DNA of 64,000 nucleotides from Candidatus Multivorans sp. (GCA_965205295.1 OZ242167.1:3826007-3890006); one strand, 5' to 3'; shown: positions 25,658 to 56,541, numbered from the stretch's first letter. The notes: generated by a model not told the origin, from the letters alone. A program made the numbers and translations.

Positions 25658-25733
25658 GCCGGCATAGCTCAGTTGGTAGAGCAACTGCCTTGTAAGCAGT
25701 AGGTCCTCGGTTCGAATCCGGGTGCCGGCTCCA
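25658..25733 (+). tRNA. tRNA-Thr (anticodon TGT)
   Basis: The cloverleaf was folded by hand. The acceptor is GCCGGCA/TGCCGGC, the D arm AGCTCAGTTGGTAGAGC, the anticodon stem ACTGC/GCAGT with loop CTTGTAA, the T arm CTCGGTTCGAATCCGGG, and the 3' end is CCA-encoded. Confidence 0.9.
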
Positions 25734-25747
25734 CGGAGGAAGTTGCC

Positions 25748-25834
25748 GGAGGTGTGGCCGAGCGGTTAAAGGCAACAGACTGTAAATCTGTCGGGCAAAG
25801 CCCTACGGTGGTTCGAATCCATCCGCCTCCACCA
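25748..25834 (+). tRNA. tRNA-Tyr (anticodon GTA), class II with long variable arm
   Basis: The acceptor is GGAGGTG/CGCCTCC, the anticodon loop CTGTAAA, the variable arm CGGGCAAAGCCCTA and the T arm GGTTCGAATCC. The 3' end is CCA-encoded. Confidence 0.9.
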
Positions 25835-25854
25835 CTTCTTCCTTTTGCGGGCGT

Positions 25855-25929
25855 GCGGGAGTAACTCAGGGGTAGAGTCACAGCCTTCCAAGCTGTTGGT
25901 CGCGGGTTCGAATCCCGTCTCCCGCTCCA
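25855..25929 (+). tRNA. tRNA-Gly (anticodon TCC)
   Basis: The acceptor is GCGGGAG/CTCCCGC, the anticodon stem ACAGC/GCTGT with loop CTTCCAA, and the T arm GCGGGTTCGAATCCCGT. The 3' end is CCA-encoded. Confidence 0.9.
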
Positions 25930-41199: not shown

Positions 41200-42474
41200 T
41201 TGCCCTGGCTGGCCAGCTCGGTAGCCGCGGTGCTGCTCGCGGTACTGGTAGCGGCCACGGCGGCGCCGTCGGCAGCGCAGACCGTGGTGGGCGGCGACGT
41301 GCGAATCTTTGCCTTCCAGGTCCTGGAAGAGATCGAGATCGGTGGGGACGGGGATGCTGCCGCCGAAGACGCCGGGTTGGGCGGCGCCGGCGGGGTGGAA
41401 CTCGGGATCTTCCGGCTCAAGCTCGATTCCCGCTGGCAAATGGGATCCCGAGACAGCTTCCGCCTCGAGGTGCACGGCGTGGCGCAGGCCGTGTCGCCAC
41501 CTGGCAGCGGCGCCGTCACGTCGGTGGCGACCGGCGCCACGCGGCGCTTCTTCGACCTGGAGTCCGACTCCTTTGGCCGCGGCGATGTGGCCGGCGCCGC
41601 CGAGATCGACCGCTTCAACCTGCGCTGGGACCGGCCCGGCTTCCGGATGGTCTTCGGCCGCCAGGCGATCACCTGGGGAGTGAACTACTTCTGGCCGGTG
41701 CTCGACCTGTTCGCCCCGTTCGCTCCGCAGCGCATCGATCGTGACTACAAGCCCGGAGTCGACGCGCTGCGGTTCACCGTGCCGATAGGCGACTTCTCCG
41801 AGGTCGAGGTCATCGCGGCCAGCCAGGGCGCGCGGACTCCCGACGACCTGAGCTTCGCCTCCCTGGGCCGCTTCCACAGCGAACTCGGCGAGGGCGATTC
41901 GAGCCTCGACTTCGGCTACATGGTCGGCGGCTTCCACCGCGACCTGGTCCTCGGCGGCTTCTTTTCGGCCGATGTCTGCGGCACCGGCCTGCGCGGCGAA
42001 GTCGCCTGGACCAGTCCGGGCTGCGACCCCCGGAGCGCTCACCCGGCGTTCGGCTGCGGCGACTTCTGGCGCTTCACGGTGGGCGTCGATCGCCTGCTGA
42101 CGCCGACCGTGACCCTGATCGCCGAGGCGAGCTGGAACGGCTTCGGCGCCGGCGACCCCGCGGACTACGCGCGGCTTGCCGGCGCCGACCGCGTAAGCCG
42201 TGGCGAGGTCGTTTCGCTCGGGCGCCGTTACGCCGGTCTCTCTCTGGGATGGCAGGCCCACCCGCTGCTGACCGTCAGCGGCGCCGTGCTCTTCAACCGT
42301 GGCGATTCCTCGGCGCTGTTTCAGCCCGGCATCGCCTGGTCCGTGTCCGACCACGTGGCGGTCAACGGGGGCCTGCTCCTGTCGACCGGCCGCGGCATCC
42401 GGGACGGCGTGCTGGGCAGCGAATACGGGGCGGTGCCGGTGGTGGCCTGGTCGTCCCTGACCGCCTACTTCTAG
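41200..42474 (+). CDS. putative outer-membrane beta-barrel protein (C-terminal Phe)
   Basis: A signal peptide (LPWLASSVAAVLLAVLVAATAAPSAAQ) is present. Alternating amphipathic beta-strand patterns are seen, and the C-terminus ends ...SLTAYF. The start is uncertain (TTG 41200 or GTG ~41140); the track ORF at 40735 overlaps the ATPase. Confidence 0.5.
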   Translation: MPWLASSVAAVLLAVLVAATAAPSAAQTVVGGDVRIFAFQVLEEIEIGGDGDAAAEDAGLGGAGGVELGIFRLKLDSRWQMGSRDSFRLEVHGVAQAVSPPGSGAVTSVATGATRRFFDLESDSFGRGDVAGAAEIDRFNLRWDRPGFRMVFGRQAITWGVNYFWPVLDLFAPFAPQRIDRDYKPGVDALRFTVPIGDFSEVEVIAASQGARTPDDLSFASLGRFHSELGEGDSSLDFGYMVGGFHRDLVLGGFFSADVCGTGLRGEVAWTSPGCDPRSAHPAFGCGDFWRFTVGVDRLLTPTVTLIAEASWNGFGAGDPADYARLAGADRVSRGEVVSLGRRYAGLSLGWQAHPLLTVSGAVLFNRGDSSALFQPGIAWSVSDHVAVNGGLLLSTGRGIRDGVLGSEYGAVPVVAWSSLTAYF

Positions 42475-42499
42475 AGCTCGGCGCTGCCCATCTTTACCA

Positions 42500-42560
42500 G
42501 TTGTTCACCTGCCGTGGGGTACGCTCCGCCAGCCTAAACAACTGTTCGACTACACGAGAT
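42500..42560 (+). promoter_or_regulatory. putative Pho-box-like operator upstream of pstS (inverted repeat ACCAGTTGTTCACC ... AAACAACTGTTCGAC)
   Basis: CAGTTGTT and AACAACTG are reverse complements, 25 nt apart. Each lies next to a GTTCACC/GTTCGAC half-site resembling actinobacterial PHO boxes. Location is the pstS 5' region. Confidence 0.3.
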
Positions 42561-43451
42561 TTGGCGCCTGTGAAGACCGCGAAAGTCACCTCCAGCGCAT
42601 GCTGTCTGGTCCTTGCGGCCCTGGTTGTTGCCTGCGGCGGCAGTTCCCGCAACGTGATCCAGAACAAGGGTTCGGACACCCTGGTCAACGTCGCCCAGGC
42701 GTGGGCCGAGAACTACGCGGCCGTGGTTCCGGGCACGGCCGTTGCGGTGACCGGCGGCGGCTCGGGCACGGGCATTTCGGCGATGATCAACGGCACCGTC
42801 GATATCGCGAACTCCAGCCGGCGCATGAAGGACTCCGAGATCGAGCTGGCGCGCGGAAATGGCAACGAACCGATCGAGTTCGTCGTCGGCTTCGACGCGG
42901 TGGCGGTGTTCGTCCATCCCGACAACCCGCTCGGCGAGGTCTCGCTGGAGCAGTTGGCCGAGCTCTACGGTGAGGGCGGCGGGTTCGAGACGTGGAGCCA
43001 GCTCGGCGTCGAGGTGCCGGGCTGCAGCAGCGACGAGATCGTCCGGGTCAGCCGTCAGAACAACTCCGGCACCTACGTCTACTTCCGTGAGGCGGTGCTC
43101 GGCGACCGGCGCGACTTCAAGCTCGGTTCGCGTGACATGCACGGCTCCAAGGACGTGGTCGACCTGGTCGAGAACACGCCCTGCGCGATCGGCTACAGCG
43201 GCCTCGCCTACGCGACGGACCACATCAAGATGCCCTGCGTCAAGACGGGCGAGGACGGCGATTGCGTGTCTCCTTCGGTCGAGACCGCGATCGACCGGTC
43301 CTACCCGATCGCCCGCCCCCTGTTCATGTACACCGCCGGCGAGCCCGAGGGCGCCATCCGCGACTACATGGACTGGGTGCTGAGCGACGAGGGCCAGTGC
43401 ATCATCTACGAGAAGGGCTACGCGCCGCGCGACGGCGTGAACTGTCCCTGA
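42561..43451 (+). CDS. pstS: phosphate ABC transporter substrate-binding lipoprotein PstS
   Basis: A lipobox LVVACGG is present. PstS-family motifs are TGGGSGTGISAMINGTVDIANSSR and GYSGLAY. The start is TTG 42561 or GTG 42570. Confidence 0.85.
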   Translation: MAPVKTAKVTSSACCLVLAALVVACGGSSRNVIQNKGSDTLVNVAQAWAENYAAVVPGTAVAVTGGGSGTGISAMINGTVDIANSSRRMKDSEIELARGNGNEPIEFVVGFDAVAVFVHPDNPLGEVSLEQLAELYGEGGGFETWSQLGVEVPGCSSDEIVRVSRQNNSGTYVYFREAVLGDRRDFKLGSRDMHGSKDVVDLVENTPCAIGYSGLAYATDHIKMPCVKTGEDGDCVSPSVETAIDRSYPIARPLFMYTAGEPEGAIRDYMDWVLSDEGQCIIYEKGYAPRDGVNCP

Positions 43452-43526
43452 ACCAGAGCTTCCAAGCACCAGAACTCCAGCATGACGCGGCGTCCGCAGT
43501 TTCTTGGCGGCTGGTTTGGCTGAGCT

Positions 43527-44525
43527 ATGAGCTTGCGCGGCAGGAGAATTGGCGTACCCCATACGCCACGGCGCAAGCTGCCGGCGCACGCGGCCGACCG
43601 GCGCGATTTCGCCTGGTGGATCGACCGGGCGGTGCAGGTCCTCGTCTTTGCGGGCGGCCTGTCGGCGATCGTCTTCATCGTCGGCATCTTCCTCTTCATC
43701 ACGCGGGAGGGCGCCGGCTTCGTTTTCGATCGCTTCGAGTTCCGCGAGTTCTTCTTCTCGCCGCGCTGGACGCCGACCTCGAACCACAACGCGACCTACG
43801 GCGCGCTGGCCCTGATCGCGGGCACGGCCTCGGTGACCGGGCTCGCAATGGTCGTGTCGGTGCCCTTCTCGCTCGGCGCCGCGATCTACATCGGGGAGTT
43901 CGCCACCGGCCGCACCCGGGAGACGTTGAAGGTGCTGGTGGAGCTCCTGGCCGCGATCCCGTCCGTGGTCTGGGGGTTTATCGGCCTCTCGATCATGAAC
44001 CCGTTGATCATCCAGATCTTCGACGTGCCGGTGGGCCTCAACGTACTGAACTCCGGGATCATCCTGGGTCTGATGGCGGCGCCGATCATGACCACGATCG
44101 CCGAGGACGCGCTCAAGGCGGTGCCCGACGGCTACCGGGAGGCCGCCGAGGCGATGGGCGCCACGCGCTGGCAGGTGACCTTCAAGGTCGTGCTGCCGGC
44201 CGCCCGCAACGGTCTGGTGGCGGCCACGCTGCTCGGTGTCGGGCGCGGCTTCGGCGAGACGATGGCGGTGCTCATGGCGAGCGGCCACTCGATCAACCTG
44301 CCGACCAGCCCCTTCGACTCGGTGCGGGCGCTGACCGCGACCATTGCCGCCGAACTCGGCGAGACGGCGGCCGGTTCCGACCACTACCAGGCGCTGTTCA
44401 CGCTCGGCATCTTCCTGTTCAGCGTGACCTTCGCCATCAACTTCGCGGCCGATGTCTTCGTTCGCGGCGGCCGGCGCAAGCACCGCCGCCGGGGCCGCCG
44501 CCCGGCCGCTTCGGCGAACCCGTAG
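43527..44525 (+). CDS. pstC: phosphate ABC transporter permease PstC
   Basis: A polytopic protein with the EAA-loop region AEAMGATRWQVTFKVVLPAA. Confidence 0.88.
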   Translation: MSLRGRRIGVPHTPRRKLPAHAADRRDFAWWIDRAVQVLVFAGGLSAIVFIVGIFLFITREGAGFVFDRFEFREFFFSPRWTPTSNHNATYGALALIAGTASVTGLAMVVSVPFSLGAAIYIGEFATGRTRETLKVLVELLAAIPSVVWGFIGLSIMNPLIIQIFDVPVGLNVLNSGIILGLMAAPIMTTIAEDALKAVPDGYREAAEAMGATRWQVTFKVVLPAARNGLVAATLLGVGRGFGETMAVLMASGHSINLPTSPFDSVRALTATIAAELGETAAGSDHYQALFTLGIFLFSVTFAINFAADVFVRGGRRKHRRRGRRPAASANP

Positions 44526-44543
44526 GGACGGAGGAGGAAACGC

Positions 44544-45413
44544 GTGTTCGAGGCGACCGAGCGCAACCGGCGCAACCGGAAGGTGGAGAGTCTGTTCCGA
44601 CTCCTCTTCCTGTGGATGACCTGCATGTTGATCGTGCCGGTCGCCCTCATCCTCGGCGTGCTGATCTACAAGGGCGGTCCGGCGATCTCCTGGGAGTTCC
44701 TGTTCACGTCGCCAACGAATGGGATGAAGGCGGGCGGCATCCTGCCCGCTCTGCTGGGCACCGTGTGGCTGGTGGTCGTGGCTCTGCTCGCCTCGGTGCC
44801 GGTCGGCGTGGGGGCGGCGCTCTACCTGAGCGAGTATGCACCGGACAATCGGCTCACCCGGGCCATCAACCTCGCGATCATCAACCTGGCCGGCGTGCCT
44901 TCGATCGTCCATGCGCTGTTCGGCTTGGGCGCCTTCGTCCTCTTCTTCCGCTTGGGCACCAGCATCCTGGCTGCCAGCCTGACCCTGGCGGTGATGACCC
45001 TGCCGGTGGTCATCGTCGCCACCAGGGAGTCGCTCCGGACCGTGCCGCTCGCCTTCCGCGAGGCATGCTGGAACATGGGCGCGACGCGCTGGCAGACGAT
45101 CCGCAAGGTCGTGCTGCCCAACTCGGTCAGCGGCATCCTCACCGGCGTCATTCTCGAGGTCTCCCGTACCGCCGGCGAGACCGCGCCGATCATGTTCACC
45201 GGCGCCGTGTTCTTCCTCCCGTTCCTGCCGCAGGGGGTGCTCGACGAGACGATGGCGATGTCGCTCCACCTGTTCGTCATCTCGACCCAGGTGCCGGAGG
45301 TGCCTGAGCACCTGCCCTTCGGCGTCGCGCTGGTGCTGATCTCCATGGTGCTGGCGATGAACGGGCTCTCCATCGCCTTCCGGGTCTATCTGCGGGGCCG
45401 CAAGAAGTGGTGA
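44544..45413 (+). CDS. pstA: phosphate ABC transporter permease PstA
   Basis: A polytopic protein with CWNMGATRWQTIRKVVLPNSVSGILTG. Confidence 0.88.
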   Translation: MFEATERNRRNRKVESLFRLLFLWMTCMLIVPVALILGVLIYKGGPAISWEFLFTSPTNGMKAGGILPALLGTVWLVVVALLASVPVGVGAALYLSEYAPDNRLTRAINLAIINLAGVPSIVHALFGLGAFVLFFRLGTSILAASLTLAVMTLPVVIVATRESLRTVPLAFREACWNMGATRWQTIRKVVLPNSVSGILTGVILEVSRTAGETAPIMFTGAVFFLPFLPQGVLDETMAMSLHLFVISTQVPEVPEHLPFGVALVLISMVLAMNGLSIAFRVYLRGRKKW

Positions 45414-46195
45414 GCGCTCCCGCGCCGGCGATCGCCGACTCCGACTTCGCGATCGACGTCGTCGACCTGGCGATTCGTTACCAGGGAAAGTTGGCGCTCT
45501 CGGGCGTCACGCTCCGGGTGCCAAGGAACGAGATCTTCGGCGTTATCGGGCCGGCGAACAGCGGCAAGACGTCCTTCCTGCGCGCCATCAACCGGATGGA
45601 CCTGATGACGGCGGGGATGACGGTCGAGGGCGCGGTGCGTGTCGAGGGCCGGGACGTCCGCAGTTGGCGCAATCCCTATGCCCTGCGACAGCGAATCGGC
45701 GTGGTGTTCCCGCTGCCTGTGGGCCTGCCGATGACCATCTACGAGAACGTCGCGCTGTCGTCCCGGCTGCGCGGCACGCGAAGGAAGGCCGACCTGGACG
45801 TGATCGTCGAACGCTGCCTGCGGCGGGCCGCGCTCTGGGACGAGGTGAAGGACCGGCTCGATTCCCTGGGCAGCCTGCTGTCGGGCGGCCAGCAGCAGCG
45901 GCTGACGATCGCGCGCGCGCTGTCCCAGGATCCGTCGATCCTGCTGCTCGACGAGTTCTCGATCGCGGTCGACCCCGTGACCACGATGCGGATCGAGGAG
46001 GTGCTGGCGGAGCTCAAGTCCGAGATGACGATCGTGCTGGTCACGAACCTCGTCCAGCAGGCGCGGCGGTTGGCTTCGCAGACCGCCTTCTTCCTCACCG
46101 GCGAGCTGGTCGAGGTGACCGAGACGGAGGCGATGTTCGAGGGCGGCGCCCAGGATCCGCGGACCACTGCCTACGTCGAGGGGAAGTTCGGATGA
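45407..46195 (+). CDS. pstB: phosphate ABC transporter ATP-binding protein PstB paralog 1 (H-loop His replaced: TNLVQQA)
   Basis: Walker A is GPANSGKTS, the signature LSGGQQQRL and Walker B LLLDEF. The canonical PstB THNMQQA H-loop reads VTNLVQQA. The GTG start overlaps the pstA stop. Confidence 0.85.
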   Translation: MVSAPAPAIADSDFAIDVVDLAIRYQGKLALSGVTLRVPRNEIFGVIGPANSGKTSFLRAINRMDLMTAGMTVEGAVRVEGRDVRSWRNPYALRQRIGVVFPLPVGLPMTIYENVALSSRLRGTRRKADLDVIVERCLRRAALWDEVKDRLDSLGSLLSGGQQQRLTIARALSQDPSILLLDEFSIAVDPVTTMRIEEVLAELKSEMTIVLVTNLVQQARRLASQTAFFLTGELVEVTETEAMFEGGAQDPRTTAYVEGKFG

Positions 46196-47007
46196 CCGAG
46201 GCAACTCCCGCGACGGGAGCGATGCCCGCGGCCGCCGATCCGGCCGCGGCGATCCTGATCGAGAAGCTGAACCTCTGGTACGGCGACTTCCAGGCCCTGT
46301 TCGACGTCGACCTGAACGTGAAGGCGGGCGCGATCACCTCCCTGATCGGCCCCTCCGGATGCGGCAAGACGACCTTGCTGCGCTCGGTCAACCGGATCAA
46401 CGAACGCCTTCCGTACGTGCGCACGTCGGGCCGCATCCGGCTGTGGGGCCTGGATGTCTACGCCCCGGCGGTCGAGCTGGCTCAGCTCCGCAAGCAGATC
46501 GGCATGGTCTTCCAGCGTCCGAACCCGTTGCCGCTGTCGGTGCGGGACAACGTGCTGTTCGGGACTCGAGTCCACCGCCCGAACGAGCGCCCGCCGACCA
46601 GGGTCGAAGGCGATCGGATCGTCGAAGAGGCGCTGCGCGAGGTTCTGCTCTGGGACGAGCTGAAGGACTCGCTCGACCGGCGCGGCACAGAACTCTCGCT
46701 CGAGCAGCAGCAGAAGCTGTGCATCGCGCGTCTGCTGCCGGTCAAGCCGAAGCTCCTGCTGATGGACGAACCCTGCTCGGCGCTCGACCCCGCCGGCACG
46801 GAGGCGGTCGAGGAGCTGATCTGGAGGCTGCGCGGCGAGTACACGATTCTGATCGTTACCCACAACATGGCGCAGGCCCGGCGCGCGAGCGAGGAGTGCG
46901 TGTTCATGCTGCTCGGCGAGATGGTCGAGCACAGCGACACGGCGTCGATGTTCCTCAACCCGGCAAACAGCCAGACTGCGGCCTACATCGAGGGTCGGTA
47001 CGGGTAG
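46192..47007 (+). CDS. pstB: phosphate ABC transporter ATP-binding protein PstB paralog 2 (canonical H-loop THNMAQA)
   Basis: Walker A is GPSGCGKTT, the signature LSLEQQQKL, Walker B LLLMDEP and H-loop VTHNMAQA. The ATGA start overlaps the pstB1 stop. Confidence 0.88.
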   Translation: MTEATPATGAMPAAADPAAAILIEKLNLWYGDFQALFDVDLNVKAGAITSLIGPSGCGKTTLLRSVNRINERLPYVRTSGRIRLWGLDVYAPAVELAQLRKQIGMVFQRPNPLPLSVRDNVLFGTRVHRPNERPPTRVEGDRIVEEALREVLLWDELKDSLDRRGTELSLEQQQKLCIARLLPVKPKLLLMDEPCSALDPAGTEAVEELIWRLRGEYTILIVTHNMAQARRASEECVFMLLGEMVEHSDTASMFLNPANSQTAAYIEGRYG

Positions 47008-47074
47008 CTGGCGGCGTGCCCAGCGTTCCGCGCGACGAAACGGGACCTGACGAAGCCATTTCCACAGGGATCCG

Positions 47075-47533
47075 TCAGCAGTTTCTCCCCCGGAATTCTC
47101 CCGCGGCCTCCGCGCTCCGTACCCATGCCGCGACATCGTCAATCAAGTGCACGAATCTGCGTTTCCCCGGCCCGCGCAGCGCGCATTCCCATACCGTCAG
47201 GCAACGCCATCCCGCCACGCGCAGCGCATTCCGAACCTCTGCGTCACGTTCTTGGTTGCGCCGGATCTTGCCGTCCCAGAAGTCCGTTCTGGTGGCCGGA
47301 CGCTGGAATAGCGGACAATCGTGCCCGTGCCAGAAGCACCCGTGAACCAAGACGGCGGCACGGAACCGTGGCAGTACGATATCCGGCTTGCCGGGCAGCT
47401 CCGCCACATGGGTGCGATACCTGAATCCGCGCGCATGGAGCGCTTTCCGGACCGCCATTTCCGGTGCCGTGTTCTTGCTTCGCACCGAGGCCATAAGGCG
47501 GCTTCGCGAACGCCGGTCCAGGCTGTCGGCCAC
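47075..47533 (-). CDS. vsr: very-short-patch-repair endonuclease Vsr
   Basis: The 152-aa product has FVHGCFWHGHDC and TDFWDGKIRRN(QE)RD motifs. It is the last gene of the minus-strand array dcm-X-Y-vsr. GTG start. Confidence 0.88.
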   Translation of the reverse strand: MADSLDRRSRSRLMASVRSKNTAPEMAVRKALHARGFRYRTHVAELPGKPDIVLPRFRAAVLVHGCFWHGHDCPLFQRPATRTDFWDGKIRRNQERDAEVRNALRVAGWRCLTVWECALRGPGKRRFVHLIDDVAAWVRSAEAAGEFRGRNC

Positions 47534-47568
47534 GAAGCGCTCCTCCTTGCTGGGAAGGTTCCTGGGCC

Positions 47569-48588
47569 CTAAAGACGAATGTCCGGCTGGCCTTGACGTG
47601 CGTAGAACGAGGAAAACCTGGAGATGATGTCTTTGATGAAACTCGGAGCGATGCGCACGTTCAAGGACTGAAAGCTCCTTTCAAACCCCTCCCACGGTGC
47701 CGTCTCGAGCCGTCGAAAATCTACGAAGCCGGCCGCTATGCCACCAGACTGCGGCAACCAGTGGAAGTAGTTGGAGTCGTTGTTCTTCCTCAACCGCTTC
47801 TGGCGCTTGCGGTCCGCTCCTACTCTCTCGAACAGGGCTTCCTCAGGCACGACTTCCGCCACCACCACGATGTCAGTCTTGGGCTTTCCGCTGGGTCGAA
47901 TCACTAGGTCGCATGCGGGCGTCATCACCACGTGAGAAGTCTCTCCATCCGTCCGCCGAACAAGGGTCCCCGTCTGCAGCGAGTCCTTAAGTGGCGGGGC
48001 CAGGTACACTTCCTCGGCGTAGCAAGGCGTTTCATCCGCCTCCAACTCCGCCGCCAAGTGGCCCAGGGTGTAGCGCAACAGCGCCTTCTTGGTCCGCTCC
48101 TTATCCTCTCGCCCATAGTCCACCCACATGTCGATCGTCGGAAGCAGGTTCGCTAGGAAGACTCCGTTCAGTCGTTCCTCCAACAGCCCCCGGCCGCCCA
48201 TGATCTCGGTCAGGCCGACGTCGAAAATCTCCCAGAGGCGGTCCAAGATCTCGTCGAACCCATGTTTACCCTTGGTGTAGACACCGACGACGGGCGGCTC
48301 ATCTACCGCGTCGGCGGGCGTTCCTGTCAGGACCGCGACCGGAACGCGGAAGTGGCTCTTGAGCTCTTCAATGACCTCTCCACCGTCGGAGGTGTCCCTG
48401 CCTAGGTTCAGGTCGACGATAGCTGCGTCAATCGACCCGTCCAGACTGCTCTTCGCATCGGCCAAGGTTGTCTGAACACGCATCTCTATCTGCCGGCCGT
48501 GCTCTTCGACGTAGTCCTTGAGAACCTCTCGGTATTCATCCACCAAGCTGGGCTCGTCCTCCACCAACAGCAGTTCAAGCGCACTCAC
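47569..48588 (-). CDS. response-regulator receiver (REC) domain protein with ~220-aa C-terminal domain of unknown function (candidate effector)
   Basis: The REC landmarks are LLLVEDE (acidic pocket), AAIVDLNLG (phospho-acceptor Asp), VAVLTG (Thr) and YTKGKH (Lys). The C-terminal half (…PACDLVIRPSGKPKTDIVVVAEVVPEE…NYFHWLP…) matches no family recognisable by eye. The GTG start with a GGAGAA RBS overlaps the upstream kinase stop (GTGA). Confidence 0.75.
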   Translation of the reverse strand: MSALELLLVEDEPSLVDEYREVLKDYVEEHGRQIEMRVQTTLADAKSSLDGSIDAAIVDLNLGRDTSDGGEVIEELKSHFRVPVAVLTGTPADAVDEPPVVGVYTKGKHGFDEILDRLWEIFDVGLTEIMGGRGLLEERLNGVFLANLLPTIDMWVDYGREDKERTKKALLRYTLGHLAAELEADETPCYAEEVYLAPPLKDSLQTGTLVRRTDGETSHVVMTPACDLVIRPSGKPKTDIVVVAEVVPEEALFERVGADRKRQKRLRKNNDSNYFHWLPQSGGIAAGFVDFRRLETAPWEGFERSFQSLNVRIAPSFIKDIISRFSSFYARQGQPDIRL

Positions 48589-50756
48589 GCCGGTTCTCCA
48601 TCTTCTGCACCGCCGGTGTCGACGGGCTGAAGCCGGAACCACGCGCCACCTTCGTGCTCCATGGCCTTTAGTTCCAGGCCGTTTCTAGTCGCTGCTTCCC
48701 CGGCAATCGCGAGTCCCAGCCCCATGCCGTCCGGCTTCGTCGAGAACTGCGGCTCGAAGACCACTCCGCTCACGATGTGTTCAGGTTCGATTCCAGGACC
48801 CGTGTCAGTGTAGTCAACGTGCAGCAACCTCTCGTCGTCGGTCGAGATCGCTATCTCTATGCGCTTTTCGGCAGCCTTGGTTGTGTGTAGCCAGTAGAGG
48901 CTGTTGTCGATCAGGTTCGTGAAGATCGCTTGAATGTCCTGCCGCCAGCATGGGTACTTGACCGATCTATCGCCGACAATGCGGCAAGTCACACCCGCTC
49001 GGTCCAATTCTCCAGAAAACGTATCCTGAGCGCGCCGGATGACCCTGAGCAACACTTCCGACTTCCTGCGGGAACGACGTTGCGCCGCCAACGGATCAAG
49101 CCGGCCGAACAGCGTTACCAAGTCGCTCGCGTTCTCCGCTATGCCCGTTGCCCCATCCACTATCTTCGGCACTAGGATCGGGTCGCGCGTCTTCTCGAAG
49201 CGAGTGGCGTGTTTCCGGAGGAGCGGGAATTGGTTGCGGAAGTAGCTCAACGGCCGGCGGCCCTCGTGGAGCACGACGTTGATGATCTTGCCCAGTGTCG
49301 CCTGGCCTTGGTACACCGCAATCGCGTCGCGCAATCGCCTGACAGTCTCGCTTCGCTGCTGCTCTTCGGACTCGATCAGGGCGATCACTTCGGCAGCGGT
49401 CGTGTCGCTCACCCGGGCTCCGCGTAGCGTAGACCGGACTTCGCGCTTCAGAGCATCGAAGGAGTAGAGCCTCTCCAGTTGGCGCTCGACTTTGAACGTC
49501 TTCCTGCCCAAGCCGGCGCGCTGCCGGTACAAGTAGCGTTTCTCCTCCAGCCTGGCGATCACTTTCGTGGTGATGTCCTTCAGCCGGCCGAAGGCCTCGT
49601 TATCGATGAGTCCGTCCCTCGCGCTCTTCTCGATAAGCTGCGATTGTTCTTCCGACTGGATCTGGACGTAGCCGATGACTTGGTTGTTGCCGATGCGAAA
49701 GGCGGGCCTCTGCACGCGCTGCTCGTTGAGTTTGAGCCAGTCGAACTCGGGATCGCCCAGCGGGCGCAGGCGGAATCCGTTCCTGTACACGCCGATACCG
49801 TTGTATTTGTTCAATAGTTGTCGTGTTTGAAGCCTGCCTAAGTAGTTCCCGAGGGCGTCCTTCAACCCACGGCGAATGAGCTGGTCCACCGAGGCTGGAT
49901 CCCGGTCGTAAACCCGAATATCGATCTCAAGCTCCCCGCACCCGGAAGGCCCTTCTAAGTCAATGAGGATCTCTTCGTCCACCGCGTTTCGCGACTTTTG
50001 CTGAGAGTACACGACGGACCCAGTTCCGTCGGCCCCTATCTTGCCCGCGATCCGATAGTCGAAGTGTTCAACGAGCGGAAAGGGTTCCACCTGAGCGTTC
50101 ATATCGTGCACGCCAGGCAGGTCGGAGATGCGGAGAACTACGTCAAAGGGCTGCTCGGTCGCCATTGTCAAAAAGGGAGACATCAGCTTCCTGAGCTCGA
50201 ACTGCAGCTTGTTGAACTGTGAGTCGCTCCAAGGCGGAAGGCTCTTCTCGTCGACGGCCATGGTCAGCGTCGTTCCTGCCTCCTGCTCGACTGACTCCGT
50301 CTCGATCAGGATCTCCACGTCCTCCAGATACTCGGCGCGCTCGAAATCGGCCCATTGGAGGTAGAGGGTGGTCTTCTCTCCAGAGGCCGTCGTTGTCTCT
50401 AGGAGAAGGTCCTTGCCAAGGATCGAGGCTGCGTAGCGGCCGATTCCCTTCCGGCCCTGCATGGTCCTGCCAGCCGGGCTGTGGCCGTCCCGGTGATCTT
50501 TGTCCGGTGTTGACGGGACCATCCACTTGTTGATGACCGTGTCGCGCGTCATGCCGTGGCCGTGGTCGGCGAACTTGATCTGAAACTCGCCATTGCCGGT
50601 CCGCTCGAACGCGATTACCGCGTCCGGCGAGTCTGCGTCGTAGGCGTTCTTGACGAGCTCGATGACCGCCGCATGCGGATCCTGGACCAAGTCGCGTCCG
50701 ATCGTCAGGATGTGCCGTCCGGCGGGCCGGATCCTGTATGAGCCAGACTTAGGCAT
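48585..50756 (-). CDS. fusion protein: N-terminal Bergerat-fold GHKL ATPase (MutL/MORC-like) + C-terminal histidine-kinase core (H-box, N/G1/G2 boxes)
   Basis: The N-terminal motifs are ELVKNAYDA (motif I), DHGHGM (motif II) and GRKGIGRYAA (GxxGxG). The C-terminal H-box is VLHEGRRPLSYF. About 110 aa later come the N-box NLIDNSLYW, G1 DTGPGI and G2 GMGLGL. The ATG at 50756-50754 overlaps the last codons of dcm. Confidence 0.75.
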   Translation of the reverse strand: MPKSGSYRIRPAGRHILTIGRDLVQDPHAAVIELVKNAYDADSPDAVIAFERTGNGEFQIKFADHGHGMTRDTVINKWMVPSTPDKDHRDGHSPAGRTMQGRKGIGRYAASILGKDLLLETTTASGEKTTLYLQWADFERAEYLEDVEILIETESVEQEAGTTLTMAVDEKSLPPWSDSQFNKLQFELRKLMSPFLTMATEQPFDVVLRISDLPGVHDMNAQVEPFPLVEHFDYRIAGKIGADGTGSVVYSQQKSRNAVDEEILIDLEGPSGCGELEIDIRVYDRDPASVDQLIRRGLKDALGNYLGRLQTRQLLNKYNGIGVYRNGFRLRPLGDPEFDWLKLNEQRVQRPAFRIGNNQVIGYVQIQSEEQSQLIEKSARDGLIDNEAFGRLKDITTKVIARLEEKRYLYRQRAGLGRKTFKVERQLERLYSFDALKREVRSTLRGARVSDTTAAEVIALIESEEQQRSETVRRLRDAIAVYQGQATLGKIINVVLHEGRRPLSYFRNQFPLLRKHATRFEKTRDPILVPKIVDGATGIAENASDLVTLFGRLDPLAAQRRSRRKSEVLLRVIRRAQDTFSGELDRAGVTCRIVGDRSVKYPCWRQDIQAIFTNLIDNSLYWLHTTKAAEKRIEIAISTDDERLLHVDYTDTGPGIEPEHIVSGVVFEPQFSTKPDGMGLGLAIAGEAATRNGLELKAMEHEGGAWFRLQPVDTGGAEDGEPA

Positions 50757-52011
50757 GCCAATCCTCTCGGATCCGGGCCGCGATCCCGCGGGACAAGAGC
50801 ACGGGGACTGCGTTGCCGATCTGGCGAAACGCGTGTGTCCGTGACGGCCGCAGCCCGACGCCTTCGAAGTAGTAGTCGTCGGGAAAGGTCTGCAGCCGCG
50901 CCGCCTCCCGCGGCGTGATGGACCGGTTCTGTTCAATGTCGGGGTGAATGTAGTAGTGACCATCCTTGCAGATGTGGGCGACCACGGTGTGCGCGAACGG
51001 CAAGTTTCCCGCCACGACCTTGAACCTGTCCATGAACGCGGCCTTGTTCCGGTGGGTCTTGAGGTGCGGCGGCAATGTGCTGTATCGCAGCCTGGATCGC
51101 CGTTCGTTCCACTCCGTCACCGCTATACGGTAAATCTCGAGATCCCGCTCCGTATGAGGGCGCGCCTGATGCCAAGTCAACGGCAGCGAGCCGCTGACAC
51201 CCGCCTCGACTTGCCACGTGCTCTTGCACGGCAGGCGATGGCACGGCGCGACATCGCCTTCTCCGGCACTAAGCGGGGGCAGGCCCCCGAAGGCCTCGCT
51301 CACGGTGACATCCGGCGCCCACCGCCTCGGCTCAGGGTAGACAGCCGTGCTGCCTTCGCAATGCCCGACCAAGACCACACGTCTCCTGTTCTGCAGCACT
51401 CCGTAGTCCTTCGCGCTCAGGATGCGAAAGCGAGTGTCGTAGCCTAGCTTGCTGAACAAGCGCCGCATGGCGTCCAAGTAACTCGCCCCGTCGCGGTCCT
51501 TGGCCGAAAGAAGCCCAAGGACGTTCTCGAACACGAACACCTTGGGGCGGTACTTCTCCAAGAACTTCGCATAGCACTTGTAAAGGTGATTTCGGTTGTC
51601 CGCCACCATGCCCTTGGGGTCGCGAGAGCGACCGACGATGGAGTAGGCTTGGCAGGGAGGGCCGCCGATGAGCAGGTCCAGTTCGTGCCCGTCCAACCGG
51701 GAGTCGATCTCGCCGTAGATCCGCCGCAAAGTGTCTGGCCGTATCTCCTCGTTGATGACAGAGCGCACAACCTGTTGCGGCACTGCCGCGTACAGCATGT
51801 CCCGGTCGATACTGCCTGCTAGGTAGTCCGCGTACACGTCCTCACGACCGGCTGCTACGAGCCAGTGATAGGCCATTCGGGTACGCAGGGTGTTGCATGC
51901 CGCCGCATCCGTCTCGACATGCGCGATGGGCTGGTAGCCCTCCTGTATGAAACCTTCCGAGAGTCCGCCGCCGCCAGCAAAAAGGTCGACGAAACTCAAT
52001 CGATTACGCAT
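50749..52011 (-). CDS. dcm: DNA (cytosine-5)-methyltransferase (Dcm-like)
   Basis: The C5-MTase motifs are I FVDLFAGGGG, IV GGPPCQAYS, VI ENV and X QIGNAVPV. The start was set at ATG 52011 (MRNRLSFVDLFAGGGG) with an AAGGAA RBS. The track TTG start is at 52041. Confidence 0.88.
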   Translation of the reverse strand: MRNRLSFVDLFAGGGGLSEGFIQEGYQPIAHVETDAAACNTLRTRMAYHWLVAAGREDVYADYLAGSIDRDMLYAAVPQQVVRSVINEEIRPDTLRRIYGEIDSRLDGHELDLLIGGPPCQAYSIVGRSRDPKGMVADNRNHLYKCYAKFLEKYRPKVFVFENVLGLLSAKDRDGASYLDAMRRLFSKLGYDTRFRILSAKDYGVLQNRRRVVLVGHCEGSTAVYPEPRRWAPDVTVSEAFGGLPPLSAGEGDVAPCHRLPCKSTWQVEAGVSGSLPLTWHQARPHTERDLEIYRIAVTEWNERRSRLRYSTLPPHLKTHRNKAAFMDRFKVVAGNLPFAHTVVAHICKDGHYYIHPDIEQNRSITPREAARLQTFPDDYYFEGVGLRPSRTHAFRQIGNAVPVLLSRGIAARIREDWHA

Positions 52012-52198
52012 TCCGGCTGGTTCCTTTGTTCGCACGCTCAAACTCCGCCGATTGTAGACGAGCCAGCGTGACGGCCGATCCTAGCAGGTCACGGGCGCGT
52101 CTCCAGTCATCGAGTCGCTTGCCGCGCTCGTCGCTGGAGGGAAAACTAGGGGATCTTTTCAAAACAAAGGCTCCCGACGGCAATTGCGAGAGGCTCCC

Positions 52199-55100
52199 TT
52201 ACGCCGGTCGTGTTGGTTTGCCGCCGTGGACCGTTGGTTCCGCGCACCACTGGCGACGGAGCAGGTCCAGTGGATCGAGCAGTTCGTTCGGCAGGCCAAG
52301 CACGTCGATCAACACTGCCCGGTCAAGCGCGATGCGGTTCTCGTCGCGGTAGGCCTCGTTGGCGGGCAGGAACGCGGCTTGGCGGAACCCCTCCAGCAAG
52401 CTGGCCGCCTGGGTGATCTGCTTCTCGTCCAGCGCCCGCGGGTCGAGTACGGGGAGTCGAGGAAGCCTGCTGATCGTCAGTATGACACGGCCCTGCTGCT
52501 GCCGGCTCCCGTGCCACCAGAAGGTCATCATGCCCAAGGTGGTGTTTGCCCACAGCAGCACGGCGGACGACCAAGCCTCGTCTTCCAGCTTGAAGTTGGG
52601 CCAAGCCCTGCCGCCCAGCGTCTTGCGCCGCGTCACGCAGGCGGCGAGGGGCTGCGAGTTCAGTTGGAAGTCGAGGCTGAAGTGGAGTCGACTCGCGGTC
52701 CGCCGCCAGGTTCGTGCGGCCCGGTCTGCACAGTTCGGCCGTGGCTGCCCGAAGGAATCCGGCTCGATCTCCAGATGCCGTTCCCGCGCCGCATCATGGC
52801 TCCATAGCGCCGGATAGGTCGGCACTCGACCTTCTTCCCAGGGACGAATGTCGAACGGACCGCGCGGCGGCTTGTCCTCTCCGGGAGGAGTGCCGTTGAT
52901 GTCCCTGTGAACCAGGCCGCGACTGCCGATGGAACCCAGTGGCGCGACCGGGGTCCGGTGTTCCTGCGAGAGCCGGGGCAGGACAAGCCTTCCGTCGTCA
53001 AGAGCTAGCATCGTCCGAGCGAGACCTGGTTCGACGATCGATGCTGCGCCCCCGTTGGTCAGGCCGGTGCGCACGAAAGTGCCGCTCGTCTGGCAGGGCG
53101 TGAGCTCGATCAAGCCCGTGCCTCCGGGGAGATCGCGTATTCGGCGAGCTACGCTGACGGCCTCCAGAACCGTCCGCGGCCGCTTCCGCAGGCTGGCGAA
53201 CAGGGTTTCCGGACCTTGGAGGGGGATTCTCGCTACAGAGCCGAGAGCCTTGGTGCCGACGAGGAGCACCTCAGCCATGCCCGTGTCAGCGGAGAAAGCG
53301 CGGTCGGTCGTCCCCGTAGCGGCGATGGAGACAACGGTCAGATCGCTGAAGAACCCGGCGAGGAGACGACGCGCGGCGTTCCAGGATTCCCCCTGGACAA
53401 ACGAGGCGGGCAGCACAAGGGCCAGGATGCCGCCTGGGCGCAGCTTCAGGTGGGCTAGGTCGACGAAGTTCGACGCCAAGCCGGCGTTGCCGTGCCCGGC
53501 GGAAATCTCCAGCCCGGCTCTCAGTTCCTTCAAACGCCGTGACATCACCCGCTGCTCTTCGGCGCTGGTCGCGAAGCCCGCGAAGGACGGGACAGGAACA
53601 TCCGTGGACTCGTGGTTTGTTGGCCGCGTGAAAGGCGGGTTCATGATGACGAGATCGAAGCTCTCGTTCGGCACCTCCACGATCTTCGGGTCTACGGTCG
53701 ATGCGCCGCCGTGAAGCTCGACGACTCCGGTGTCGAATAGAGGCAGCACACGCTCGTCCGCCAGCAGGTCCAGCGAGCCGATGGCATGCCGACCGCCGCC
53801 TTGCTCTGCTTCGCCGTAGGGCATGGTGTAGATGCGCGTTCGTTTGAAAGGTTGCTGCGGATGGGCGCTGGAGAGAATCGCTGCCGTCAGGTGCGTCGCT
53901 GCCGGCATGATGTCGGCGCCGGTCAACACCTGCTCCATCATCTCGTGGTGGAGCTTCCGGTCGTCGCGTCCGGCCCGCCGCAGCCTTGCGCCCACCCGGT
54001 GCTGGACCGCCGACAACAGGGCGCCGGTGCCGCATGCGAAGTCGGCGATTCGCAGGCGCGCTACCGCTGCTTCGTCGGCCCAGTCGACGTTGAGTCTGGC
54101 GGCCGCCAGTTCGGCAAGCAGGTGAGCGCTGGCTGGGAGCGTGTAGAAGGTGGCCAGGAACTTCCGGTCGCTGATCAGGCGCTGGAACAGAATGCCCGAC
54201 AGATCCTGGATCGTGGTGGCGCCGAGACCCGCGAGTTGAGACGCAGCGTCGATCAGTCTGCCAAGGCACTGCTCAGTCTCACGCTCCGGGATCACCCTCA
54301 GCACGTCGTAGGCGATCTCGAAGATCGGCCAGTAGTCGATGTCGAGCACCTGCTCCCAGGCCCGCAGAACGCGCCTCTTCGAGGTGTTCCCGTGCTTGCT
54401 GCTCAGAGCACTCAAGTCAGGGATGTCCTGGACTCCCGCTATGGCGGACTGAAACAGCAGCGCGTCGAGCAGGATTGCCATCGCCATGCGGGTGGTCTGC
54501 TCGCAGTCTTCCTGGTGTAGAGCGCTTGCAATCCGGCGCAGAACCTCCGGACTGCGGTCGGGTGCCGATCGTCGAAGCCGCTCCGCAGTGGTTCGGACCG
54601 CCCGTTCGAGCAGTTCCAGCCCCTCAGCAATTCGCTGTTCCGAGAGGGACACCTGTTCGACGCAGTCGGCAAGTTCGTCGATTCCGCCTTCAAGCCAATC
54701 GCTTCCGGGCCAGCGTTGAACCGCGCGGCCTTCAAGGGGCGAGCCGGAGAAGGTGCACCATCGGAAACGCCCAGACAGGATGCCGGGACCAAGGTCGCCG
54801 CCGCCTTCGCCCAGATGACCGGGGATGCGCACCGCTAAAACCGCCTCAAGGAGGTCGCCCGTGTCGTGCAACACGCGGCCCAGTCGATTCTTCGCGTCGT
54901 CTTCAACGGTGCGCGCTGGCTCGTACTCGGTCTCCAGGACGACCGGCATGCCGGCTGGGGGCCGCACGACAATGTCCGGTTGGGCACCCGCGTACTCCCT
55001 GATCACTCCCGTTTCTTCGGCCGCTATCCTCCACGAGTCAGGGAGTTTCCGGCTGAGTACGGTAGCCAGGGCGTTGTTGAACGCGGTCTCGACGGTGCGG

Positions 55101-55237
55101 GGCACGGATGCCCGATCATACGGGGTACATCCAACGGTCCGCGCATGTGGGCCCGACAGGAGGGGCTTTGTGGACCAATGGAGCCCGTACCCGATCAGTC
55201 GCGGCCCTGTGAGCATGGAGCGGCTCGGCTGTGCCAT
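52199..55237 (-). CDS. large N6-adenine DNA methyltransferase-domain protein (Type IIG/IIL or BREX-PglX-like; possible N-terminal PD-ExK-like nuclease)
   Basis: The ~1010-aa product has motif I IADFACGTGALL and motif IV VIMNPPF about 115 aa later. The N-terminal ~280 aa contain QPDIVV...VLETEYE. A long C-terminal region is TRD-like. The start was set at ATG 55237, 35 bp from the divergent ATPase gene. Confidence 0.65.
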   Translation of the reverse strand: MAQPSRSMLTGPRLIGYGLHWSTKPLLSGPHARTVGCTPYDRASVPRTVETAFNNALATVLSRKLPDSWRIAAEETGVIREYAGAQPDIVVRPPAGMPVVLETEYEPARTVEDDAKNRLGRVLHDTGDLLEAVLAVRIPGHLGEGGGDLGPGILSGRFRWCTFSGSPLEGRAVQRWPGSDWLEGGIDELADCVEQVSLSEQRIAEGLELLERAVRTTAERLRRSAPDRSPEVLRRIASALHQEDCEQTTRMAMAILLDALLFQSAIAGVQDIPDLSALSSKHGNTSKRRVLRAWEQVLDIDYWPIFEIAYDVLRVIPERETEQCLGRLIDAASQLAGLGATTIQDLSGILFQRLISDRKFLATFYTLPASAHLLAELAAARLNVDWADEAAVARLRIADFACGTGALLSAVQHRVGARLRRAGRDDRKLHHEMMEQVLTGADIMPAATHLTAAILSSAHPQQPFKRTRIYTMPYGEAEQGGGRHAIGSLDLLADERVLPLFDTGVVELHGGASTVDPKIVEVPNESFDLVIMNPPFTRPTNHESTDVPVPSFAGFATSAEEQRVMSRRLKELRAGLEISAGHGNAGLASNFVDLAHLKLRPGGILALVLPASFVQGESWNAARRLLAGFFSDLTVVSIAATGTTDRAFSADTGMAEVLLVGTKALGSVARIPLQGPETLFASLRKRPRTVLEAVSVARRIRDLPGGTGLIELTPCQTSGTFVRTGLTNGGAASIVEPGLARTMLALDDGRLVLPRLSQEHRTPVAPLGSIGSRGLVHRDINGTPPGEDKPPRGPFDIRPWEEGRVPTYPALWSHDAARERHLEIEPDSFGQPRPNCADRAARTWRRTASRLHFSLDFQLNSQPLAACVTRRKTLGGRAWPNFKLEDEAWSSAVLLWANTTLGMMTFWWHGSRQQQGRVILTISRLPRLPVLDPRALDEKQITQAASLLEGFRQAAFLPANEAYRDENRIALDRAVLIDVLGLPNELLDPLDLLRRQWCAEPTVHGGKPTRPA

Positions 55238-55272
55238 GATGCCGTCATATTTCCCGGAACAATGACGGCGAC

Positions 55273-56433
55273 ATGTACAACGAACCCTATCCCCGACTCT
55301 CCCGCCTTCCGGGTCGGAGCTTCTTCCTGCTCGGCGTCCGAGGGGTCGGCAAGAGCACTTGGGCCCGGCAGAACCTCGGCGACGCTCACCGGGTTGACCT
55401 GCTAGACGAAGCGCGCTTTCACGACTACTTGGTCGATCCGGCGTTGTTCGCGGCGGAACTGCGGTCGGTTCCACCCGGAGGCTGGGTGGTGGTCGACGAG
55501 ATTCAGCGCCTGCCGAACCTGCTGAACGAGGTTCATCGGTTCATCGAAGGGCATCGGCTCCGCTTTGCACTCCTCGGGTCCAGCGCCCGAAAGCTGAAGG
55601 CGGCTGGAGTCAACCTGCTGGCGGGGCGAGCGCTGCGCCGGATGATGCACCCTCTGACGCCGGCGGAACTCGGCCGCGAGTTCGACTTCGAGGCCACACT
55701 TCGATGGGGAACCATTCCACTCGTTTGGACCGCCGAGGACCGGCGCGCGACGCTCGAGAGCTATGTGCAGCTCTACCTCCGTGAGGAGATCCGGGCCGAG
55801 GCACTGGTGCGGAATCTGGCCGGCTTCGCCCGTTTCCTGCAGGTTGCCGCTCTCTGTCATGGAGCCACCGTCAACGTGTCGGGCATCGCGCGCGAGTGCG
55901 GCGTCGCCCGAACCACCGTGCAGGGATACCTGGACATCCTGGAAGACACCCTGCTGGCGTACAGGCTGCCAGCCTTCGAAGCGAAGCTGCGCGTGCGCGA
56001 GCGCCGTCACCCGAAGCTCTACTGGGTCGACCCGGGGCTCGTTCGGGCGACGAAGCGGCTTTTCGGTCAGGTCGCGCCCGAGGAGCGCGGAACGCTCCTC
56101 GAGGGATGGGTGCTGCACCTGCTCCGAGCGCACGGGGAGGAGACCGACCTGTACGAGGCGGTCCACTACTGGAGCCCGCACTCCGCGGCCCACACTGAGG
56201 TGGACTTCCTCCTGCGCCGTGGCCGCGAGTTACTGGCGATCGAAGTGAAGTCCCAGGCCAGGTACCACACGGGTCTGCTCCGCGGCTTGCGCGCGGTGGC
56301 CGAACTGGCCGGCATGAGCCGGAGGATCCTCCTGTACGGCGGCAGGCGATCGTTTCGCACCGAAGACGGTATTGAAGTTTGGACGTTCGACGATCTGCAC
56401 CAGGCATTGGCGGAGGATGCGCTCTGGCCGTGA
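55273..56433 (+). CDS. AAA-family ATPase with C-terminal DUF4143 (AAA_14/DUF4143 family)
   Basis: Walker A is LLGVRGVGKST and Walker B VVVDEIQ. The C-terminal DUF4143-like region is RRHPKLYWVDPGL. Confidence 0.75.
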   Translation: MYNEPYPRLSRLPGRSFFLLGVRGVGKSTWARQNLGDAHRVDLLDEARFHDYLVDPALFAAELRSVPPGGWVVVDEIQRLPNLLNEVHRFIEGHRLRFALLGSSARKLKAAGVNLLAGRALRRMMHPLTPAELGREFDFEATLRWGTIPLVWTAEDRRATLESYVQLYLREEIRAEALVRNLAGFARFLQVAALCHGATVNVSGIARECGVARTTVQGYLDILEDTLLAYRLPAFEAKLRVRERRHPKLYWVDPGLVRATKRLFGQVAPEERGTLLEGWVLHLLRAHGEETDLYEAVHYWSPHSAAHTEVDFLLRRGRELLAIEVKSQARYHTGLLRGLRAVAELAGMSRRILLYGGRRSFRTEDGIEVWTFDDLHQALAEDALWP

Positions 56434-56541
56434 TGGGGTCAGTCGGCCTGGACCGCTTGCAGCCTCGGCCAGGCCGCGGCTCGGCTCGCTGTGGCATCAT
56501 CGACCGCTGTTCCGGAATACGCGTCGAATGGGAGGCAAGGT

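Follow-up and report, generated by a model that had tools for sequence, protein, structure and literature searches.

Gene organisation of the cassette

The four-gene cassette described here lies between positions 47075 and 52011 of a 64,000-nt stretch of the Candidatus Multivorans sp. genome (GCA_965205295.1 OZ242167.1:3826007-3890006), which we call the window and over the whole of which positions are counted. Its genes, all on the minus strand, are found in the order dcm, a GHKL::histidine kinase gene, a gene for a receiver (REC) protein and vsr; the middle two, encoding the kinase and a response regulator with a predicted toxin-like output domain, are our main subject. The gene models from the translated window, including the dcm start, agree with independent gene calls on a metagenome contig, L001. 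The original prediction, made from the DNA alone, had placed four closely packed genes at these coordinates, with overlapping stops and starts and a 35-nt gap, and the open reading frames (ORFs) and the gene calls on L001 both confirm it. The genes and the catalytic residue of the methyltransferase are:

50749..52011, minus strand: dcm, C5 cytosine DNA methyltransferase, 420 aa (PF00145, 1.6e-52; TIGR00675, 1.6e-47)
51652-51654, minus strand: dcm catalytic Cys120 codon (PPCQ)
48585..50756, minus strand: GHKL::histidine kinase, 723 aa (HATPase_c_3 plus HATPase_c)
47569..48588, minus strand: response regulator, 339 aa, GTG start (receiver plus predicted toxin-fold output)
47075..47533, minus strand: vsr, very-short-patch T:G mismatch endonuclease, 152 aa, GTG start at 47533 (PF03852, 9.1e-31; TIGR00632, 3.6e-43)

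The dcm stop codon TAA (50751..50749) falls inside the kinase start ATGCCTAA (ATG 50756..50754), giving an 8-nt overlap; the GTGA at 48588..48585 is the kinase stop overlapping the regulator start; and the 35-nt spacer between regulator and vsr carries a GGAGGAG ribosome-binding site. Scans for promoters and terminators gave nothing above shuffled background. Over 47-56 kb the GC content falls to 0.60-0.65, from about 0.67-0.71 in the sequence immediately to either side.

Profile searches of the cassette proteins revealed no recognisable restriction endonuclease, Vsr being the sole nuclease domain. The Dcm protein matches the PADLOC model for the DISARM methylase, DrmMII, from end to end (1.2e-156). 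DISARM itself was rejected, as the six genes scanned from 47 to 56.5 kb include none resembling DrmA/B/C; the DrmMII model may instead represent the kinase-linked Dcm clade (discussed below).

Domains and catalytic residues of the kinase

The kinase joins two different GHKL modules, one at each end of the protein, and its domains and phosphoacceptor are placed as follows (DHp, dimerisation/phosphoacceptor; CA, catalytic ATP-binding):

50259..50699, minus strand: MutL/MORC/Hsp90-type GHKL ATPase domain, aa 20-166 (PF13589, 1.3e-18)
49389..50258, minus strand: middle region, aa 167-456, strongly conserved, no family match
49077..49388, minus strand: DHp region, aa 457-560 (H-box; alignment to solved DHp structures)
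49266-49268, minus strand: phosphoacceptor His497 codon
48621..48959, minus strand: CA domain, aa 600-712 (PF02518, 1.9e-17)

Pfam places HATPase_c_3 at aa 28-148 (1.3e-18) and HATPase_c at aa 607-710 (1.9e-17), and NCBIfam aligns residues ~460-709 to the cores of AtoS, FixL, PhoR and ZraS. A profile built from 24 homologues and run against PDB matched HtpG, MutL and MORC3 over positions 24-187, and the DHp plus CA structures of ThkA, FixL, ZraS and HK853 over positions 457-711; the MutL/MORC-type N-terminus foreseen in the original prediction is thus upheld, by Pfam (PF13589) and by the MutL and MORC3 matches alike. More than 3000 relatives of the kinase exist; among the 120 listed, all have one or both GHKL Pfam domains, and most have both.

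Residue conservation was scored over 24 diverse homologues (36-82% identity). The H-box, H497-E498-G499-x-x-P502, is invariant, and H497 is the very histidine (49266-49268) that had been singled out beforehand. In the CA domain the N box (N614/N618), G1 box (D651-x-G653-x-G655), F box (F667) and G2 box (G677-x-G679-x-G681) are invariant or nearly so; both the phosphorylatable histidine and the ATP lid are present and invariant. The N-terminal module likewise keeps its GHKL motifs, with E33, N37, D64-x-G66-x-G68 and Q100-G-x-K103-G-x-G106 invariant or near-invariant. On these residues the kinase is read as combining a catalytically intact MutL/MORC-type GHKL ATPase with a complete HisKA-type DHp plus CA core, and, by inspection of its sequence, as a soluble protein without membrane segments.

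No Pfam or PDB sequence match covers the middle region (aa 167-456), which contains the invariant blocks NGIGVYRNGFR-RP-GD--FDWL (aa 320-341) and EKSARDG (K377). An S5-like transducer or clamp with a helical linker after it is a possible reading, suggested by the analogy with paraMORCs (PMC2292703).

The response regulator and its output domain

Three parts can be recognised in the regulator, of which we obtained an AlphaFold2 model with a mean pLDDT of 84.5:

48217..48588, minus strand: receiver (REC) domain, aa 1-124
48412-48414, minus strand: receiver phosphoacceptor Asp59 codon
48034..48213, minus strand: helical hairpin linker, aa 126-185 (AlphaFold2 helices 134-161 and 163-184)
47584..48021, minus strand: MazF/Kid/CcdB-fold toxin-like output domain, aa 190-335 (predicted structure; helical insert aa 249-267)

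The receiver matches PF00072 weakly and has the receiver fold with its acidic pair, phospho-Asp, Thr/Ser and Lys; across regulator homologues D59, T88 and K106 are invariant, and E10 and D11 nearly so. Judged from these intact catalytic residues, the kinase and regulator are a genuine two-component pair, lying between dcm and vsr as had been predicted. The hairpin linker has invariant residues of its own (G131, G132, G134, E137, W155 and the ALLR at 169-172), and a search for a structural match to it found none; it might act as a lever or as an inhibitor in cis.

It is the output domain that gives the pair its unusual character. Two independent structure-comparison methods, applied to the predicted model, returned a toxin fold with a clean gap to background: an SH3-like barrel with a C-terminal helix, as expected of this superfamily, in which the match to CcdB is nearly as good as that to MazF, and in which the superfamily members matched are mostly endoribonucleases. 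We therefore predict that the regulator's output domain adopts the MazF/Kid/CcdB toxin fold, and we are fairly confident of the parts list as a whole, namely a two-component pair with a toxin-fold effector. Profile searches with the window protein and with 61 representatives found no DNA-binding or other recognised regulatory output domain. We found no paper that assigns a MazF/CcdB fold to a response-regulator output or to regulators linked to restriction-modification (R-M) genes, within a literature coverage that was incomplete.

The regulator family keeps E193, C226, D227, H276, K319, R331 and Q332, of which E193, C226, D227, H276 and R331 are invariant; the Glu/His/Arg set would be compatible with metal-independent RNA cleavage. 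The most strongly conserved motif of all is YARQGQP, at the extreme C-terminus.

In one protein of 571 aa (P0247) the hairpin and toxin-fold region of the regulator is fused to the N-terminal portion of a C5 methylase, with neither kinase nor receiver. We rejected it as an alternative architecture: it has probably arisen by deletion or through a gene-calling error, although a real protein of this kind would amount to a toxin domain without its gate.

Distribution and gene neighbourhood

Relatives of the regulator, of about 335-390 aa, fall into 826 clusters at 90% identity; clustered at 50% (E<=1e-3) they number 1430, of which 412 have E<=1e-30. A scan of one genome per species gave 177 relatives, and 80 loci were fetched for neighbourhood counts, spanning Acidobacteriota, Proteobacteria, Poribacteria, Chloroflexota, Bacteroidota, Spirochaetota and Desulfobacterota, together with one Methanoperedenaceae archaeon. 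The family is rare on viral contigs (2 loci).

The kinase gene lies immediately upstream of the regulator gene in every testable locus (79/79). In 55 of 72 testable loci (76%) the kinase is directly preceded by a dcm gene on its own strand, at a median end-to-start distance of 2 nt by tblastn. The regulator is directly followed by vsr in 37 of 76 testable loci, and a further 6 loci have vsr at another position. In 32 of the 80 loci all four genes stand together in window order. The kinase-linked dcm always belongs to one clade (55-85% identical), and sequence identity to the window proteins rises and falls together for Dcm, kinase and regulator (r = 0.88-0.95; for Dcm and kinase, r=0.92). Recurring in dozens of species across many phyla, the arrangement goes far beyond chance. 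The core unit is the kinase-regulator pair, with Dcm as its usual partner and Vsr as a frequent accessory.

The setting is one of defence islands and mobile DNA. In loci that lack dcm, the pair is accompanied by TIR proteins, type I R-M genes, AbiEii-like ATPases or N6/N4 methylases. About 40 Campylobacter jejuni/coli plasmids, and the locus L083, carry the kinase-regulator pair; these plasmids are conjugative (MOBP/MPF_T) and of ~51-60 kb, with dcm convergent and the pair next to VapD and HicAB, and some copies have a split kinase gene. Their hosts can be cultured, which makes the plasmids a convenient source of the pair. On a Bacillus plasmid dcm lies ~1.4 kb downstream of the pair. In two further loci (L019 and L074) the kinase aligns by tblastn only in interrupted or truncated form, and additional sequence precedes the regulator gene; these breaks may be insertional inactivation, as would be expected of a costly toxin system.

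Relationship to known systems

The closest relatives in the literature are the kinases described computationally by Bellieny-Rabelo, Pretorius & Moleleki in 2021, which combine HATPase_c_3, HEF_HK and HATPase_c domains and in 91.6% of cases are linked to a response-regulator-like gene (PMC8011034). That family has a C5 methylase upstream and, in 20 genera, Vsr immediately downstream, and its authors derive the HEF_HK kinases from paraMORCs (PMC8011034). The resemblance to the window cassette is extensive: in both, a soluble HATPase_c_3 + DHp + HATPase_c kinase is followed immediately by the response-regulator-like gene, with the C5 methyltransferase upstream, Vsr downstream and a wide, patchy phyletic spread. 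The suggestion, in the original prediction, that a GHKL::histidine kinase fusion with a cognate REC-effector was undescribed must therefore be withdrawn, as the architecture is reported in PMC8011034.

The two are nevertheless not the same. The 2021 response-regulator-like query is of 600 aa with no recognised output, whereas the window regulator is of 339 aa, with a PF00072-like receiver and a predicted MazF/CcdB fold, and the H-box of the window kinase reads HEG, unlike that of the HEF_HK family. The Pfam models of the 2021 family, PF19191 (HEF_HK) and PF19192 (Response_reg_2), which had no positive control here, gave no match to the window proteins at E<=10. Nor did they match relatives from eight genera (including Yersinia, Geobacter, Hymenobacter, Campylobacter, Acaryochloris and Bacillus), the 61 representatives, the precomputed Pfam annotation of 340 listed homologues, or the proteins retrieved with the Hymenobacter regulator as seed. 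Searching E. coli genomes by blastn with the Yersinia locus, to supply such a control, gave no match. Since PF19191 and PF19192 never match and the regulators differ in length (339 against 600 aa), we reject membership of the Pfam-defined HEF_HK/Response_reg_2 family, and regard the cassette as a sister variant of the kind described in 2021.

Detocs, the defensive two-component system to which the cassette had been likened without being equated, consists of DtcA, DtcB and DtcC, including a stand-alone buffer receiver, with a PNP ATP nucleosidase as effector (Rousset et al. 2023, 10.1101/2023.01.24.525353). Both systems pair a histidine kinase with a regulator in which a toxic effector (a predicted one here) replaces the usual DNA-binding output. 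The window cassette differs in having no DtcB-like buffer gene (there is no third receiver gene, as the original prediction had noted), in a kinase sensor that is a MutL/MORC GHKL ATPase, in an effector predicted to be MazF/CcdB-like, and in its linkage to Dcm and Vsr. Against PADLOC models, where no match had been expected, the regulator indeed gave none; the kinase matched only a type II restriction-enzyme model, through its N-terminus, and Dcm gave the DrmMII match mentioned above. With no buffer gene, a different sensor and effector and no matching PADLOC model, identity with Detocs is rejected.

With the paraMORC and MORC GHKL ATPases of R-M operons the window kinase shares intact N-terminal ATPase motifs and a neighbourhood rich in cytosine methylases and Vsr (PMC2292703), and in those systems too the ATPase is thought to control a linked effector (PMC2292703; VcSduA, PMC12137116). 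There, however, the effector nuclease is fused to the ATPase or partners it directly, while the window ATPase is fused to a histidine-kinase core and, unlike paraMORCs, would signal by His-Asp phosphotransfer to a separate protein. The survey of Iyer, Abhiman & Aravind 2008 contains neither 'receiver' nor 'two-component', and 'histidine kinase' only within the GHKL acronym (PMC2292703).

An N-terminal GHKL domain is also found in the BbrUII/HgiDII restriction enzymes (NF050001, positions 14-164, aligned to kinase residues 20-166, 1.3e-12), which are partnered with m5C (5-methylcytosine) methylases. In the window this match is limited to the first ~150 residues of the kinase (47 bits against a cut-off of 550 bits), the rest of the protein being kinase core and not nuclease. 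No characterised restriction enzyme matches the pair, and a classical type II R-M system was rejected: a restriction nuclease is lacking, and the BbrUII/HgiDII and PADLOC REase_II matches cover the GHKL N-terminus only.

Finally, MazF/Kid/PemK, CcdB and ToxN/AbiQ, whose fold is predicted for regulator residues ~190-335, are growth-arrest effectors in addiction and abortive infection. The regulator differs from MazF/CcdB toxins in its lack of detectable sequence similarity to them, in the helical insert in its barrel and in MazF catalytic residues that are not evidently conserved. The cassette also has no antitoxin gene or RNA; control would come from the covalently attached receiver.

A proposed conflict module and its alternatives

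We propose, with a probability of about 0.5, that the cassette is a self-contained, horizontally mobile conflict module (for phage defence or addiction) in which a phosphorylation-gated toxin is held under a MORC-like ATPase-kinase, with Dcm marking self DNA. The killing arm would be this gated toxin and not a restriction endonuclease. Like MutL, MORC and VcSduA (a validated paraMORC3-Shedu protein), the GHKL module could dimerise as a clamp driven by ATP and monitor DNA or an infection cue, most plausibly DNA without the Dcm mark; the state of the clamp may reach the DHp by way of the middle region and helical linker, and there set the balance of kinase and phosphatase activity. His497 would then autophosphorylate and pass its phosphate to Asp59, altering the oligomeric state of the receiver, probably by dimerisation, such that the toxin domain is freed or assembled. 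MazF-type toxins act as dimers, which makes receiver dimerisation attractive as the switch. The toxin would arrest the cell, most likely by cutting RNA, leading to abortive infection or post-segregational killing. Dcm, by marking self DNA, would keep the sensor quiet, and the role of Vsr would be repair only, of the T:G mismatches arising from deamination of 5-methylcytosine.

Several of these steps have precedents. Detocs is a true abortive-infection system with a kinase and a regulator with toxic output, dependent on both His and Asp (10.1101/2023.01.24.525353); in VcSduA a defence effector is under the control of a paraMORC GHKL domain (PMC12137116); and GHKL dimerisation and DNA clamping have been proposed for MutL, MORCs and paraMORCs (PMC2292703). 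The idea of an abortive-infection or defence switch, raised in the original prediction, is strengthened by the MazF/CcdB toxin fold predicted for the regulator output.

A more specific and more speculative version is that the MORC/MutL-like clamp reads the 5-methylcytosine mark of its partner Dcm and drives a His-Asp phosphorelay to a receiver-gated MazF-like RNase, such that 'restriction' would be achieved by signalling and RNA cleavage; this we put forward tentatively, as the less favoured possibility. The logic of a methylation-reading clamp feeding a phosphorelay and a gated RNase has not yet been demonstrated in any immune or addiction system.

A number of results weigh against the proposed module. 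The toxin assignment is weakened by having predicted structure as its sole support: the output domain had no match in Pfam at E<=10, and no link to MazF, PemK or CcdB there; its profile had 0 matches to PDB sequences at E<=10; and hhalign against five MazF/Kid sequences was non-significant (P=0.47), with the same strand register as the structure comparison. In that non-significant register the MazF catalytic Arg and Thr, which we take to be R29 and T52, have no conserved counterpart. The cassette contains no buffer or antitoxin gene, which makes the avoidance of autoimmunity a question. Coupling to methylation is also less than certain: a domain for reading methylation or recognising sequence was not found in the kinase, and 17 of 72 testable loci have no adjacent dcm, meaning that such coupling is not obligatory. 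The original prediction of a phosphorelay tied to methylation status was drawn from gene linkage, and on these two counts was not borne out.

The same absence of evident MazF catalytic residues (in the hhalign register) would suit a different account, which we consider unlikely, in which the pair serves as a restriction arm of non-canonical type, with DNA or topoisomerase and not RNA as its target: the clamp would load on unmethylated DNA, and the phosphorylated regulator would be a CcdB-like gyrase poison, a binder of DNA-associated proteins or a nuclease built on the same barrel. CcdB contacts gyrase through its C-terminal residues, and it is at the extreme C-terminus that the regulator has its strongest-conserved motif, YARQGQP; the structural match to CcdB nearly equals that to MazF; Dcm, Vsr and the MutL-like ATPase are all DNA-acting neighbours; and the N-terminal domain is common to the GHKL-containing BbrUII/HgiDII restriction enzymes. 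Yet the fold-superfamily members among the matches are for the most part endoribonucleases, Pfam and the PDB profile search gave no sequence similarity to CcdB, and profile searches found no nuclease motif of a known DNase family.

That the pair is instead a regulatory or epigenetic-sensing two-component system, tuning R-M or Dcm/Vsr functions without any toxin, is the interpretation of the 2021 authors themselves (PMC8011034) and fits the conserved linkage to methylase and R-M genes; we nonetheless think it distinctly improbable for the window cassette, whose regulator has a predicted toxin fold and no DNA-binding or other known regulatory output domain, and whose relatives are also found without dcm, amid unrelated defence genes. 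Least of all do we favour dcm-vsr and kinase-regulator as independent modules that co-travel in defence islands, their overlaps being mere compaction: the 17 of 72 loci without adjacent dcm, the presence of vsr directly downstream in 37 of 76, and the displaced dcm genes of the Campylobacter (convergent) and Bacillus (~1.4 kb downstream) plasmids would fit, but not the same-strand dcm directly upstream in 76% of testable loci at a median of 2 nt, its derivation always from one clade that co-diverges with the kinase (r=0.92), or the overlapping start and stop codons of the window.

Should the phosphorylation-gated toxin module that we prefer prove correct, it would add to the defensive two-component systems a second class with a mechanism of its own, joining a MORC/MutL-type ATPase, His-Asp phosphotransfer and a MazF/CcdB-type toxin, which have not previously been seen working together. 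It would also offer a tractable bacterial model for the conversion of DNA or epigenetic state into downstream signals by MORC-like ATPases, and would explain many Dcm/Vsr cassettes that lack a restriction endonuclease. Its reach would be wide, the family extending to more than 1400 clusters at 50% identity in many bacterial phyla, one archaeal genome and plasmids that include the conjugative ones of Campylobacter. The predicted toxin fold makes the 2021 annotation of 'function unknown, maybe regulatory' experimentally specific.

Genes flanking the cassette

The cassette forms part of a low-GC island (~47000-56500), bordered at 42-47 kb by the pstSCAB operon for phosphate transport. The gene directly preceding dcm, at 52199-55216 (also minus), encodes a 1005-aa protein, or 1091 aa if the ORF is read from a GTG further upstream. 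This protein has the N6-methylase motif NPPF, matches models of Eco57I, MAD2 and type II methylases only weakly, and is probably an R-M-like enzyme in its own right, of a little-characterised kind. The island closes, at its other end, with a divergent gene for an AAA_14/DUF4143 ATPase at 55273-56433 (plus; PADLOC candidate defence family PDC-S01, 2.9e-52). The 1005-aa gene accompanies the cassette in 4 of the 80 species-level loci, plus the near-identical contig L001 (those named are L001, L002, L059 and L063), and the DUF4143 ATPase gene in 1 of 80, plus contig L001; with co-occurrence so limited, both were rejected as parts of the system.

A Thermoanaerobaculia metagenome-assembled chromosome (L002) is syntenic with window positions 41264-55106 at 80% identity, which suggests that the host is acidobacterial and that insertion of the island is older than the split between the window and L002 lineages. 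Positions 1-10100 of contig L001 correspond to window 56488-46393 at 98% identity; the similarity ends at 46393, inside a pstB-like gene, past which L001 carries unrelated genes, for an FGE-sulfatase/WD40 giant protein and a caspase-like peptidase. This break reflects either recombination at 46393 or a chimeric assembly. A cluster of tRNA-Thr, tRNA-Tyr and tRNA-Gly genes at 25658-25929 (plus) has no relation to the cassette, the island being about 21 kb away.

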